A stretch of DNA of 64,000 nucleotides from Eledone cirrhosa (GCA_964016885.1 OZ024762.1:15004001-15068000); one strand, 5' to 3'. Shown: positions 50,160-61,600, counted from the stretch's first letter. Program-made: numbers and translations. The notes: generated by a model not told the origin, from the sequence alone.

Positions 50160-50577
50160 TGTATATATATATGTGTGTGTGTGTGTGTGTTTAACCATGG
50201 CACCTAGATATCTGTGTGTATATATATATATATATATACAATATATTAATAAATAGAAGCTATATTTATAAAACCATAATTATTTTATTATATATATTTC
50301 AAGGGCAACCAAGGTAGATTATGGTGCGCTTTCATCAGATAAAATAAATAAATATTTATTTATAAAACAAATTTGTATTTTATCTAATGAAAGCGCACCT
50401 TTATCTACATTGGTTGCCCTTGAAATATATATAATAAAAATAATTATGGTTTTATAAATATAGCTTCCATTTATTAATAATATATTGTATATTTACTCCA
50501 CTAAACTGTTGAGTGCTTTATATCAGTTATAAAAATGTTTAAGCTTGTTGAATCCCAACAAATTAAATATAACCTCT

Positions 50578-50610
<33 letters not shown>

Positions 50611-50825
50611 GGGTGTCCCAGAAAATGTATACATACTTCAAGACCATTCTAATACTAATAAATATTGCCAGTACAGGTAATCAAAATATGTATACATTTT
50701 TGGGGGACACCCTGTATATATATATATATATATTTAAAGGTTAAACAAGGTTCAATGAATAAATCAAAGAATAAGTTTTACAATAGATTGGAAGCACTCC
50801 ACAGCTATGGTTTTCCGGAATTATT

Positions 50826-51163
50826 AATATTAATTCAAAATATTAACAAAAATAGATATTCGTGTGATCAAGTATATTTTATTATACATATTTCAGAGGT
50901 ACTGAGCTATCTTCAACAGTACGTCCTCATCAGATAAAATAAGATGATGCATGACATACCCTGACTTAGTAGATGGTTAAGATTCAGTCATGGCAGTATG
51001 ACTGAATCTTAACCATCTACTAAGTCAGGGTATGTCGTGCATCATTTTATTTTATCTGATGAGGACGTACTGTTGAACTTAACTCAGTACCTCTGAAATA
51101 TGTATAATAAAATATACTTGATCACAGGAATATCTATTTTTGTTAATATTTTGAATTAATATA
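50826..51163. repeat. about 165-bp-arm palindrome of a hammerhead-bearing element
   Basis: Arms mirror around GGCAGT at about 50992-50997. Confidence 0.9.
51048..51114 (+). ncRNA. minimal hammerhead motif, family B (mirror copy at 50875-50941, minus strand)
   Basis: TATTTTAT-CTGATGA-GGAcGTACTG...CAGTACcTCT-GAAA-TATGTA-TA^-ATAAAATA. Confidence 0.62.
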
Positions 51164-51582
51164 TATATAAGCTTCGATTTTACTAAGCTTCCACTTATAT
51201 ATATATATATAAAGGTATTTATTTACGCTTTAATTTATATTTTTAATTATCGTGTCTATAGTCTGCCTTTCATAGGTTATAGATTCCATACACTGGTGGT
51301 TTTTCCCCTGTATTATTGATAACGCACTATATATCTCTCTCTGGTGTGTTACCTTCTCAACATATTATATTTTAAAAGGCTCAGGATCTCTTCCCCTTTG
51401 AGCACATTATTTACAGGGAATAACGACGGCCTATGCCTCCGTTAATTTATCGTGATATATATATATATATATATATATAAGTGGAAGCTTAGTAAAATCG
51501 AAGCTTTGGCTGTGGCCAAGCAAAGTCGACCTACAATAGGAATGAGTAGCAAAGCACTCAATAAGGGTAGGTCCCTAGAGTA

Positions 51583-51778
51583 ATAACTGTTTCTACTTTT
51601 GGCACAAGGCCAGCAATTAATCCAGTGTATTACTGGTACTTTATTTTATCGACCCCGTAAGGATGAAAGGCAAAGTTAACCTCGGCGGGATTTGAACTCA
51701 GATCATAAAGGGCCGTAACTCTATGCTGCAAAGCATGGCGTCCGACTCGCTACCGATACTGCCAATCCACCGTCCTTA
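51583..51778 (-). mobile_element. SINE family 2 copy
   Basis: Reverse complement of the family sequence; another minus copy at 63057-63226. Confidence 0.8.
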
Positions 51779-51838
51779 GAGTAATAACATACGTTTAAAT
51801 AGCTTGACAAATTGAAAATTGCGTTAGGCAAAAAAAAA

Positions 51839-51870
<32 letters not shown>

Positions 51871-52109
51871 ATACATATGTATATATATGTGTGTAGTATA
51901 AGTAACCATGTGTTTGGGCGGCGGTGGTGGTGAAGGAGGGGGAGGGGAAAGTCTTGTGTCTGTGAGACGCCAGCCGCCAAATGTTGTAGTTGGTGCAGTG
52001 AGAGCTGCAGCAGAACCAATCTGCTGCACCAGATTTGCACCATTCTGCACATCAGCGACACCAGCTGTATATCTATACCCTATTGTGTGTGCTGGCATTG
52101 TCTTCTGTA

Positions 52110-52705
52110 TACAGCAACAACAACAACAACAACAACAACTACTACTGCAGCAGCATTGACGGCGACAGCATCAATAGCACTAACAGTAATAACAGCAGCA
52201 GCAATAACAATAACAGTAATAACAGCAGCAGCAATAACAACAACAGCAGTGGCAATAATAACAACAACAGCAGCAATAAAAACAGCAACAACAACAATAA
52301 CAACAACAACAACAACAACAACAACAATAGTAGTAGCAATAACAATAACAACGACAACAATAACAACAACAACAACGATAGCAACAGCAGCAGCAGCAAC
52401 AACAACAGCAGCAGCAATAGCAACAACAGCAATAACAGAGCAACAACAACAACAACAATAGCAGCAATGATTACAACAACAATAGTAGCAATAACAACAA
52501 CAACAATAGCAGCAATGATAACAACAATAGCAGCAATAACAACAACAACAATAGCAGCAATAACAACAACAGCGACAATAAGAAAAGTAGTAACAATAGC
52601 AGCGACAACAACAACAACAGAAACGACAATAGCATCAACAACTGCAACAATAATAACAACAACAGCGACAGTAACAACAACAACAACGACAACAACAACA
52701 ACGTT
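52110..52705. repeat. (AAC/AGC/AAT)n compound trinucleotide repeat
   Basis: Direct inspection. Confidence 0.9.
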
Positions 52706-52834
52706 GACAGACATACAAAGTACAAAACAATAGAAAACCCTTACACGGTCGCTCGGCTCTGCCTGCTAGAAATAGCAGTCAAAGCTCCACCCAAACATTA
52801 GACAATAATATATATCGTAGAAGTCACGTCTATA

Positions 52835-58570: not shown

Positions 58571-58837
58571 ATACAATATATTAACAAATGGAAACTATAT
58601 TTATAAAACCATATTTATTTTATTATACATATTTCAAGGGCCACCAAGTCAAATTATGGTGCGCTTTCATCAGATAAAATACAATATAAATATGTCAATA
58701 TTTATTTATAAAACTAATCTGTATTGTATTTTATCTGATGAAAGCGCACCATAATTTGCCTTGGTGGCCCTTGAAATATGTATAATAAAATAAATATGGT
58801 TTTATAAATATAGTTTCCATTTATTAATATATTGTAT
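58571..58837. repeat. palindrome of hammerhead family A element (similar one at 50243-50480)
   Basis: Inverted arms of about 115 bp around a short spacer. Confidence 0.88.
58727..58792 (+). ncRNA. minimal hammerhead motif, family A (mirror copy at 58616-58681, minus strand)
   Basis: TATTTTAT-CTGATGA-AAGcgCACCA...TGGTGgccCTT-GAAA-TATGTA-TA^-ATAAAATA. Confidence 0.62.
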
Positions 58838-59162
58838 ATGTATATATATATATATGAACCTGTAACATCTTGTGGCCTTCGTCATGACATATGGCTTGTT
58901 TAAAACCCAGCAGAGTCCACCCCTGTGTGTGTGTGTTATAAAGATATATAGGGGAGAAATAGATCCCACAGTACTATACTGATACTATATTTATCAACCT
59001 CAAAAGGCTGAAAGCTGAATTTGACCTCGGCAAGATTTGAATTCAGAGTGTGCAGAGAACCGGAACGAACACCGCAAAGAATTCTATCCGATGCTCTGCC
59101 GGCTCTGCTACCCCCCCCCCCCCACTCTCTGTATGTATGTGTGTGTGTATATATATATAAAT

Positions 59163-59512
59163 GGAGGCACATGGCTTAGTGGTTAGAGCATTGGCTTTGC
59201 AATCGAAAGGTTGTGAGTTCAATTCTCAGACCGGGTGATGTGTTGTTTCCTTGAGCAAGACACTTTATTTCACATTGCTCCAGTTTACTCAGCTGTAGAA
59301 ATGAGATGATAGAGACTGGGGTCCATAACATTCCACTGCAAAGTGGTCGTGGAGGTGCCACGGCAAAAAAGCACCCAGCACTCACTGTAAATGAGGTTGG
59401 TGTTAGGAAGGGCATCCAGCTGTAGAAATCATGCCAGAATCAGTTCCCGTCCCACCCTTGCAAGCAGGGGAAAAGCGGACGTAAAATGAAATGATGATGA
59501 TGAAATGATGAT
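59163..59512 (+). mobile_element. SINE, same family as 33435-33826
   Basis: Near-identical head, core and tail. Confidence 0.85.
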
Positions 59513-59992
59513 ATATACATACACACACAATGATATTAAATAAATGGAAACTATATATATAAAGCCATATTTATTCTATTATATAAATTTGAAGGGTACC
59601 AAAAACTTTGGTACCCTTTCATCAGATAAAATACAAAGTGTGTTTTATAAATTAGTCATTTAATTTTCCTTGGATAGTCATTTCAATTTTCCTTTAATAT
59701 CATTTAATATCATTGAATATTTACTCCAGAAAGCTGTCGAGTGCTCTGAATCAGTTATAAACATTTATATTTGTTGAATTACCAACAAATTAAATATCCC
59801 TTCTGCTTATATATATATATATATATATATATATAAGAGAGATGAACACTAATATAAACATACATGTGCCCGAATCGTAAGGACTAGGTTTATTCAATTC
59901 ACTCTTGTTTATTCAATTATATTACACGGCTCGGAAAAGCTTTTTTCTTAGAGCTATTTAATTGTAAGAGACTACTTTGAGTTTCTAACTCA

Positions 59993-60047
<55 letters not shown>

Positions 60048-60350
60048 CTGCTATTTCAAGCGTTAACCTAATATATACCTCCCATATACTGTACCGATTA
60101 TGTTGTTATTTCTGTTTACCTTTTATATATATATATATATATATATAAGTATGTACACGTACATACATATATGTATACAGACGTACAGTAGTATGTATAT
60201 TTATATACATACATGCACACATATATATATGTACGTATGGATTCACCGAACATTTATTATAATGCTCGATGTGTTTGTAAACAAACATCCCGTATTAAGC
60301 TGTAGTGTCTAGCAACCATCGTTGCTCGTTTGTTCAACACTGACAAAGGA

Positions 60351-60393
60351 ACGCTGTACTAGTTTCAATCTTATGAGCTATCATCAGCAACGT
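60351..60393 (-). ncRNA. minimal type I hammerhead motif
   Basis: Minus strand ACGTTG-CTGATGA-(weak stem II)-GAAA-CTAG-TA^-CAGCGT. Confidence 0.55.
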
Positions 60394-60532
60394 ATACCTT
60401 CCTGCCAGATTGTTGAACGTATATACTTACCTTATGCATATTAACGGCTGAGTAGCCCTATTTGCATATCGAGTAGGTTAATCGGCCGGGTGCACCGAAA
60501 ACGATAAACGGAAATTTTGTTTCATTTTTTCC

Positions 60533-60600
<68 letters not shown>

Positions 60601-61600
60601 ATGATATTAATTCATGGAAACTATATTTATAAAACCATATTTATTTTATTATATATATTTCAAGGGTACCAACATTTCGGTACGCACTCATCAGATAAAA
60701 TACAAAAATTGTTTTATAAATAGTGACATATCCAAAACCAAGAACTTATCGATTTTAGTTCATTTTGGATACAGAAGAATACTGTAGAGTGCTTCGAATC
60801 TGTTATAAATAAATTTGTTGAATAACCAACAAATTAAATATCTCTTTGCTTATATATATATATATAAGAGAGTATTGAAGTTTGCTTGAAGCATTGTGGA
60901 ATAATAAGTAAATATCATTGTCGAGGCTTCCAAACGACTTAAAGATATATATATATATATATATACGATATTAATAAATGGAAACTATATTTATAAAACC
61001 ATATTTATTTCATTATATATATTTCAAGGATACCAAGTTACATTATGGTATGCCTTCATCAGACAAAATACAATATATAACAGTTTTATAAATAGACATT
61101 GACGTACCCCTTTAAAAATTGACCGTTGTTTTTGGAGGCCATCAGGATAGTGATTTGTTTACTTTAGTAAGTCATAGTGTTAAGAGTAAGTAAAAAGATG
61201 GAGAGAGAGAGAGAAACGTGGAGAAAAGAAAGGGAGAGATAGATAAAAAAAAGAAAAAGAAGAAAGCAAAAAGAAAAGAAAACAGAGGAAAAATAACGGG
61301 GAGATATCAAACCATCAGACAGAGAAAAAAGATCAATATATATATATATATATATTAGACATCAATTTAACAATGAAAATAAAAACAAAGTCAAGTTACT
61401 TTACATATTCATATCATTGTTTTACGATCGTTTCTGAGTGTCCTAGGTGTAATAAATCTTCAATGAGAAGATGTCTTAATAGATGGATGCTAAGTACCAG
61501 GTTGATAAGAAATAAAATATTCTATGGATTACTCGCTATCAGATTACATTGAGTTCTATCTACGGTACGGACCCTACCACAAAGGGTAGACCACATTGAA

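Follow-up and report, generated by a model that had tools for sequence, protein, structure and literature searches.

The window analyzed here, by which we mean the whole stretch of 64,000 nucleotides from Eledone cirrhosa (GCA_964016885.1 OZ024762.1:15004001-15068000), holds an RBM5-like gene on the plus strand (1160-46949) and, beyond it, a cluster of short insertions bearing hammerhead ribozyme motifs, which probably derive from Penelope-like elements (PLEs). An initial annotation had placed ten type I hammerhead motifs in this cluster, and all ten were found at their claimed positions:

50281-50346, minus strand: hammerhead motif c1, predicted cut after 50289
50375-50440, plus strand: hammerhead motif c2, core change G5A
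50875-50941, minus strand: hammerhead motif c3
51048-51114, plus strand: hammerhead motif c4, predicted cut after 51106
58157-58223, minus strand: hammerhead motif c5
58616-58681, minus strand: hammerhead motif c6
58727-58792, plus strand: hammerhead motif c7, predicted cut after 58784
59572-59633, minus strand: hammerhead motif c8, core change G12C, perfect 12-bp stem II
60642-60702, minus strand: hammerhead motif c9, U.U at pair 10.2
61006-61070, minus strand: hammerhead motif c10

By their core and closing stems the ten motifs fit the type I hammerhead, with self-cleavage being a prediction from sequence. The core CUGANGA/GAAA/NUH is intact in eight of them, and the AUA triplet is present in all. 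The two core mutants named in the initial annotation, the copy at 50375 and a copy with CAAA, are indeed c2 and c8, and its predicted cuts after 58784 and 51106 fall at the right positions. An exact pattern of core plus stem III matched eight times in the window and never in 100 shuffles. A structural descriptor returned seven exact-core matches and the CAAA copy (exact-core matches were absent from 20 block shuffles), passing over the copies at 50375 (c2) and 60642 (c9), and a further descriptor scan gave eight matches, six from the ten-copy family and two others, where 200 shuffles averaged 0.03. The ten copies were also used to build a covariance model, which recovers them at 94-123 bits, as it must by construction; no further copy was detected in the 64-kb window, where all other matches scored 30.3 bits or less, the next two being antisense overlaps of the same copies. 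No Rfam hammerhead model matches the ten motifs, even at an E-value of 10, and pattern scans for the motif gave zero matches in viral contigs and zero in two scans of metagenome contigs. Rfam microRNA matches over the palindromes described below stayed under the cut-off and were taken as hairpin artifacts.

The ten hammerheads are distributed over seven short insertions that lie in (TA)n tracts:

50239-50577: insertion 1, head to head; c1 ends 50 nt past the cut, c2 is tailed and ends 144 nt past the cut; the arms differ at 5 of 111 sites
50734-51158: insertion 2, a divergent subfamily; c3 is tailed (149 nt), c4 tail-less (52 nt); the arms differ at 6 of 165 sites
58112-58469: insertion 3; c5 (ending 53 nt past the cut), followed by about 130 nt from the upstream part of the element and by an inverted tail-only arm (58370-58469)
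58480-58834: insertion 4; c6 is tailed (144 nt), c7 tail-less (50 nt); the arms differ at 2 of 118 sites
59530-59806: insertion 5; c8 and an inverted tail-only arm (59702-59806) that overlaps its own short end by 14 nt
60599-60845: insertion 6; c9 and an inverted tail-only arm from about 60770, of ambiguous alignment, stopping about 10-15 nt before the short end
60966-61110, minus strand: insertion 7; c10, ending 48 nt past the cut, 5′ boundary uncertain

Two fixed 3′ ends account for all of these copies. A short end lies 48-53 nt past the predicted cut in seven of the ten (c1, c4, c5, c7, c8, c9 and c10), and a distal end 144-149 nt past it in the other three (c2, c3 and c6); every one of the ten arms ends at a microsatellite, a TA, TG or CA tract. 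We call the stretch between the two ends, about 90-97 nt, the tail. In six of the seven insertions a tail-less arm stands head to head with an inverted tail-bearing arm, so that the tail is on one arm in six of six composites. Insertions 1, 2 and 4 form head-to-head palindromes in which a single arm carries the tail, insertion 2 being a near-perfect 336-nt palindrome with a 4-nt center. In insertions 3, 5 and 6 a single arm has the hammerhead, and the inverted arm opposite consists almost entirely of tail; in insertion 3 this inverted arm overlaps its own short end by 8 nt, and the overlaps in insertions 3 and 5 have a form unlike any other copy in the window. An inverted arm was looked for at c10 and none was seen. 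Insertions 3 and 4 lie tail to tail with a short TA-rich tract between them. A stem-loop with an AC-rich 3′ arm sits just before the distal end in five of six tails and is weaker in c3. The start of an open reading frame (ORF) in the tail was considered and rejected, since the ATG-started frame of c2 and c6 is broken or shifted in c3, c5, c8 and c9; the variable sites of the shared block show no third-position bias by eye. The c3 and c4 arms differ at six sites, three of which are located in the 12-nt loop II (50900-50930 and 51060-51090).

The same layout recurs in a second, unrelated hammerhead family nearby:

48081-48232, minus strand: tailed copy, ending 98 nt past the cut
52857-53049, minus strand: tailed copy (93 nt) that has GAAG in place of the core GAAA and is accompanied by a short inverted fragment
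57817-57945, plus strand: inverted tail-only arm joined to a hammerhead and short end (25 nt), laid out as insertions 3, 5 and 6

Its ends, at 25 and 93-98 nt past the cut, and its inverted-tail layout thus parallel those of the ten-copy family. Of the eight tail-bearing arms in composite insertions, six from the ten-copy family and two from the second, four end no more than about 15 nt from the short end, and the other four stop just upstream of stem I or within about 55 nt of it; none stops inside the hammerhead. The 5′ starts of the ten-copy family cluster only loosely at stem I. The second family clusters there, all four of its arms beginning at the 5′ edge of stem I.

When the hammerhead structure is imposed on the ten-copy alignment, 96.8% of 190 cells pair, a level reached by none of 500 shuffles, although the relatedness of the copies inflates this significance. 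The covariation in stem II that had been claimed for the family is borne out, with six of nine pairs changed on both sides, and stem II is the only stem to show such changes; because the sample consists of ten related copies in only seven insertions, these counts serve as support and not as a probability. None of the eight pairs of stem I has changed on both sides, and three stay paired through G-U. The two G-U pairs noted in stem I of the 61006 copy are confirmed. Stem III is invariant across the alignment. It is a weak palindrome, fully self-complementary in nine of the ten copies (8 of 8 or 10 of 10 positions), with a duplex energy of -2.2 to -5.6 kcal/mol (-0.2 in c8). Pair 15.2-16.2 is U-A in all ten copies, and pair 10.1-11.1 is A-U in seven and G-U in three, without the extra base.

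Two features set this ribozyme apart. Stem II is built of three pairs, a C.C mismatch and then five or six pairs; the mismatch, at the fourth position, is present in nine of the ten copies and is closed only in the dead c8. Stem I comprises 8 bp (6 in c2) and is extended in c2, c5, c7, c9 and c10 by an outer helix of 12-15 bp (p<=0.04). The term "minimal", which the initial annotation applied to these hammerheads, therefore does not fully suit a structure that carries the outer helix in half of its copies. The outer helix does not rise above shuffles in c1, c3, c4, c6 and c8, of which c1 and c6 have lost sequence at this point by truncation. In the c3/c4 subfamily the outer sequences are different ones that pair with each other (-10.8 for c4, against about -4 for crossed pairs), again not above shuffles.

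It had also been stated that either strand of the palindromes carries the motif. This is true of the DNA; in a read-through RNA, however, the three palindromes are predicted to form hairpins of -136 to -259 kcal/mol, which would bury the ribozyme in six copies. The arms of the palindromes differ at 13 of 394 sites, from which 1.8 core changes would be expected under neutrality and two are seen, an estimate that gene conversion between the arms would bias. Since the core changes as neutrally expected, the covariation would reflect selection on the source elements and not on the copies in the window.

The initial annotation had called the family locally dense. It is in fact genome-wide: when sequencing data were compared to 58095-58860 (766 bases) at 80% likeness, 9,664 contigs of run X1 matched, as did 33,309 of 12,467,656 reads in X9, a restriction-site-associated DNA (RAD) run with the same species label and a biased library. 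Runs X5 and X6, which carry other species labels, gave 70 and 16 matching contigs. Depth over this segment is not a copy number and supports only the existence of thousands of variant contigs. In X9, about 2,500-2,760 reads have changes on both sides of stem II, with linkage in the same read deduced from counts, and the loose-end consensus of this read set retains the C.C position. Joints 58122>58370 and 58124>58369 in reads and contigs of X1 and X9 place the short end contiguous with the tail at other loci, and the upstream portion of c5 in insertion 3 recurs elsewhere in the genome. Raw-read depth drops from 1,596 to 169 over about 60 nt upstream of the outer stem I; some contigs extend further upstream, with loose ends of 43-194 letters. 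A further joint, 58636>58772, seen in X1 and X9, indicates that at some loci the c3/c4 type occurs head to head in a very compact form whose stem II is shortened.

With respect to the setting of the cluster, the exons of the RBM5-like gene map up to 46949, and one of them is 94% identical to RBM5 of Octopus bimaculoides and at most 70% identical to that of other named molluscs, in keeping with an octopod host. Its introns are full of minisatellites and contain 34 (TA)n tracts and no hammerhead insertion. All 12 hammerhead-bearing insertions of the window are located past 47 kb, leaving the 46-kb gene free of them (p about 5e-4 relative to the (TA)n tracts, for a boundary that was chosen after the fact). 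This clustering may come from insertion beside earlier copies, to which PLEs are prone (PMC6765202; this and the other papers given by PMC number are cited from their accessible portions), or from loss from the RBM5 introns. The remaining features of the region are:

55770-55855, plus strand: selenocysteine tRNA (tRNA-Sec) gene (Rfam RF01852, 77.7 bits), amid the hammerhead cluster and not part of the elements
53145-53189, plus strand: single minimal hammerhead of a third sequence type, adjoining (TA)n (Rfam Hammerhead_1, 31.7 bits, below the cut-off of 34)
53328-53370, plus strand: single minimal hammerhead of a fourth sequence type, adjoining (TA)n

The tRNA-Sec gene has a TATA-like run about 30 nt upstream and hammerheads on both sides, and is likely functional. 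The third and fourth hammerhead types flank a (TA)32 tract (53214-53277), and four hammerhead types occur within 13 kb. A putative first coding exon at 57244-57399 (plus strand) has a GT donor and no Pfam match; if it is real, insertions 3-7 are intronic. Palindromes or inverted pairs in TA runs were seen at 50082-50166, 50590-50733, 51169-51506, 53873-53944 and 54528-54842, the first two of which we take to resemble Tc1-type miniature inverted-repeat transposable elements (MITEs). A tRNA-headed repeat resembling a short interspersed nuclear element (SINE) occurs at 33433-33721 and 59161-59450 (94% alike), with many partial copies in the window. The window had been said to hold no reverse transcriptase (RT) ORF, which is incorrect: one exists at 31521-32336 (RVT_1, E 1e-32), in an RBM5 intron and at least 17 kb from any copy. 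It belongs to a frameshifted non-LTR (long terminal repeat) retrotransposon at 31521-33117 (plus strand), with RVT_1 followed by a PHD finger, and is presumably of the RTE type of long interspersed nuclear element (LINE).

We consider the seven insertions to be likely the 5′-truncated, now inert ends of endonuclease-positive (EN+) PLEs carrying a predicted type I hammerhead. Parentage by PLEs in itself seems to us very probable, and priming from both ends of the target stands at about even. The link to Penelope suggested at the outset is strengthened by the two fixed 3′ ends, the one-sided tail and the head-to-head inversion, while the retrozyme option named beside it loses ground for want of a head-to-tail array. 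In the mechanism that we propose, the RT-endonuclease of the parent would nick both strands of a (TA)n target, and reverse transcription would start at one of two fixed internal sites of the RNA, about 50 and about 142 nt past the hammerhead cut; the roughly 90 nt between these starts would be the tail. Both target ends would prime, and the two cDNAs would join head to head. A tail-primed cDNA that halted where the other began would leave an inverted tail and a hammerhead arm (insertions 3, 5 and 6), and one that ran past the hammerhead would leave a long palindrome (insertions 1, 2 and 4). The ribozyme would act in the tandem transcript of the parent and not in the window copies, as a double hammerhead formed through the palindromic stem III and probably assisted by protein. 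In an anole PLE, the protein cuts and extends both target strands, reverse transcription starts in vitro in an AC-rich stem-loop, with two internal start sites delimiting the tail, and the hammerhead cleaves only with protein (PMC11167929).

Several observations weigh against PLE ends made in this way. In six frames of 50000-61401 there were no Pfam families, and no RT or GIY-YIG domain on any copy, an absence that is expected of truncated stumps. The tail, at about 90-97 nt, is about three times the published 30-40. The ribozyme misses three features of the PLE consensus, namely the extra base after A9, G10.1-C11.1 and a stem I of 4-5 bp, and at pair 15.2-16.2 it is unlike Hydra-1_Obim or any of 26 Hydra rows. 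The free minimum is lower than the hammerhead fold by 2-9 kcal/mol in all ten copies. The upstream sequences of five copies cannot be aligned beyond about 28 nt (one of ten pairs at p=0.01), which speaks against a single parental 3′ untranslated region; several source lineages probably share the hammerhead end module. Target duplications are unreadable within (TA)n. Finally, the short-arm insertions could also have come about if fold-back copying made a palindrome whose center was then lost in a lopsided deletion.

This last scenario, in which a single cDNA primes itself by folding back and the center is deleted afterwards, is the most serious competitor for the inverted layout, and we think it a possibility of some weight, if a doubtful one. 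Insertion 2 is symmetric around its 4-nt loop, as fold-back would have it, and long palindromes tend to lose their centers. Self-priming has moreover been proposed for the inverted junctions of PLEs (PMC3846280). However, neither arm is contained in the other in four of the six composites (3, 4, 5 and 6), so that simple fold-back does not suffice without a later deletion, and a deletion does not predict that all four short inverted arms (three here, one from the second family) have their stop point at the short end, small as these numbers are. A different question is whether the copies are truncations of full-length PLEs or belong to a dedicated non-autonomous family that depends on PLEs, with source RNAs of about 250-400 nt (a variable leader, hammerhead and tail) mobilized in trans by the same insertion chemistry. 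No copy extends to coding sequence, read depth falls within about 60 nt upstream of the outer stem I, the upstream sequences are unrelated among copies that keep the module, and non-autonomous PLEs with pseudo-LTRs (pLTRs) are known (PMC8557442). Yet the steep 5′ truncation reported for PLEs yields the same picture (PMC8557442, PMC4209133), the drop in depth may reflect just subfamily-specific upstream sequence, and some contigs do continue further upstream; we therefore hold such a family to be possible and rather unlikely. A little more doubtful is its stronger form, in which the long stem I and the conserved stem II mismatch would strengthen the hammerhead of this dependent RNA and its RT starts would lie about 90 nt apart.

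The other explanations are much less probable. Non-LTR retrozymes, in which tandem monomers of 150-400 nt are cut by the hammerhead into circular RNA, are likewise noncoding and AT-rich, carry type I hammerheads and are known from a mollusc host, the mussel (PMC7229834). The copies c10 and c9 lie 364 nt apart on the same strand, and joining them in a double hammerhead gains 11 kcal/mol over two monomers, but the double hammerhead still lies 11.6 kcal/mol above the free fold. Moreover, c9 and c10 are separate insertions with (TA)n and other DNA between them, no head-to-tail array of the hammerhead unit occurs, and the copies neither start nor stop at the cut site, which makes this reading very improbable. 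Still less do we credit ribozymes or hairpins selected by the host to regulate the tRNA-Sec locus or a downstream gene: the position of all twelve insertions past 47 kb would suit it, as would the four of five unpaired copies in the putative intron that are antisense to that intron, but this bias is not significant, the decay of the core fits neutrality, PLEs are prone to insert beside earlier copies (PMC6765202), and the family is genome-wide. Least credible of all is a MITE-like DNA transposon of TA targets with a hammerhead-like motif in its inverted repeats by chance. The insertions are short, palindromic and in TA runs, with the MITE-like palindromes at 50082-50166 and 50590-50733 adjoining. 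Against this, the arms have unequal termini owing to the one-sided tail, where terminal repeats would be equal and fixed at their ends, the centers differ in every insertion, c10 is single-armed, and single-strand covariation is kept.

What would such ends, if correctly read as those of PLEs, be good for? PLE ends with minimal hammerheads litter animal genomes, PLEs making up about 7% of the Octopus vulgaris genome, and the kind of element is already known; what stands out is the variant ribozyme and the unusually long tail. The long stem I and the C.C mismatch make for a noteworthy hammerhead variant, since the published minimal PLE hammerheads cleave poorly. For the origin of inverted PLE ends, self-priming has been proposed (PMC3846280), and two RT starts with extension of both strands have been found in vitro (PMC11167929). 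With a 90-nt tail and two clustered stop points, double priming becomes countable from genome data alone. If the RT starts are indeed spaced this widely, priming from both target ends could be read off each insertion, and thousands of octopus copies would settle how PLEs form their inverted ends. The hairpins of 265-336 nt would presumably be double-stranded RNA if transcribed.

In their layout, the insertions resemble those of EN+ PLEs, which are described as highly 5′-truncated, with an inverted copy at the 5′ end, a tail of 30-40 bp at one end and a frequent location in microsatellites (PMC8557442, PMC3846280). Shared features are a hammerhead near the 3′ end, a head-to-head inverted copy (six of seven), a tail on one arm (six of six), a microsatellite target and a stem-loop before the distal end (PMC8557442, PMC3846280, PMC11167929). 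The insertions differ from these published accounts in a tail of 90-97 instead of 30-40 nt without an ORF start, in the lack of a parent ORF in 50000-61401, and in that three of them keep just the tail in the inverted arm. EN+ PLEs can also have direct pLTRs on either side of an ORF, formed by a partial tandem, and the window contains no long copy. Every layout test applied nevertheless came out as for PLEs, and membership is likely, judged as it is here from stumps without an attached ORF.

The hammerheads themselves share with minimal PLE hammerheads the type I topology, the palindromic stem III, a long stem II, high but covarying variability and an arrangement in opposite-strand pairs; truncated PLEs are reported as such pairs 100-700 bp apart together with scattered single motifs (PMC4209133). 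U15.2-A16.2 is also found in Drosophila and Aedes PLE rows, combined with the AUA triplet in the D. willistoni row (PMC4209133). In contrast to the consensus of that paper, with its stem I of 4-5 bp, the window copies have a stem I that is 8 bp long and comes with an outer helix; they lack the extra base after A9, pair 10.1-11.1 is A-U or G-U in place of G-C, and the fourth stem II position is C.C in nine of ten (PMC4209133). Hydra-clade PLEs likewise have a (TA)n target and a 3′ hammerhead, which in Hydra-1_Obim, from O. bimaculoides, lies within about 100 nt of the 3′ end and has A-U at 10.1-11.1, like seven of the window copies (PMC8557442). At the protein level the clade is marked by the RT and EN motifs RWK, DKT and CxCX5C and by the lack of CCHH. 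The hammerhead sequence of Hydra-1_Obim differs from ours, however, and 26 of 26 Hydra rows have C15.2-G16.2 where the window has U-A (PMC8557442). Four motifs of 12-13 nt from the window family, in DNA and RNA spelling, had no match in the accessible supplement of PMC8557442, where line breaks can hide matches. The Hydra pattern fits the second hammerhead family of the window better than the ten-copy family; stem III of the former begins with AC and ends with GU, as in the published Hydra-clade rows.

In O. vulgaris, 190 PLE families amount to 6.83% of the genome and 30 Penelope families were recently active, in a paper whose accessible portion makes no mention of hammerheads (PMC13282606). 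A literature search found no description of the ten-copy family; Repbase, Dfam and the O. vulgaris repeat library lay outside its scope, so that a prior description is possible. With the non-LTR retrozymes of metazoans, molluscs included, the copies have in common that they are short and noncoding and carry a type I hammerhead; they differ from them in the absence of tandem monomers, in inverted instead of direct repeats and in ends unrelated to the cut (PMC7229834). A search on twin priming in PLEs returned no paper about PLE inversions, as judged by title or the start of the abstract. In the twin priming of L1, the distal segment has one orientation and the upstream segment is inverted, with a small overlap or gap at the junction, and the window insertions are similar in these distal and inverted segments and in their junctions. 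Unlike in L1, the internal start proposed for the window insertions occurs at a fixed position, which also serves as the sole start in some cases, and the distal cDNA would often continue far enough to duplicate the hammerhead.

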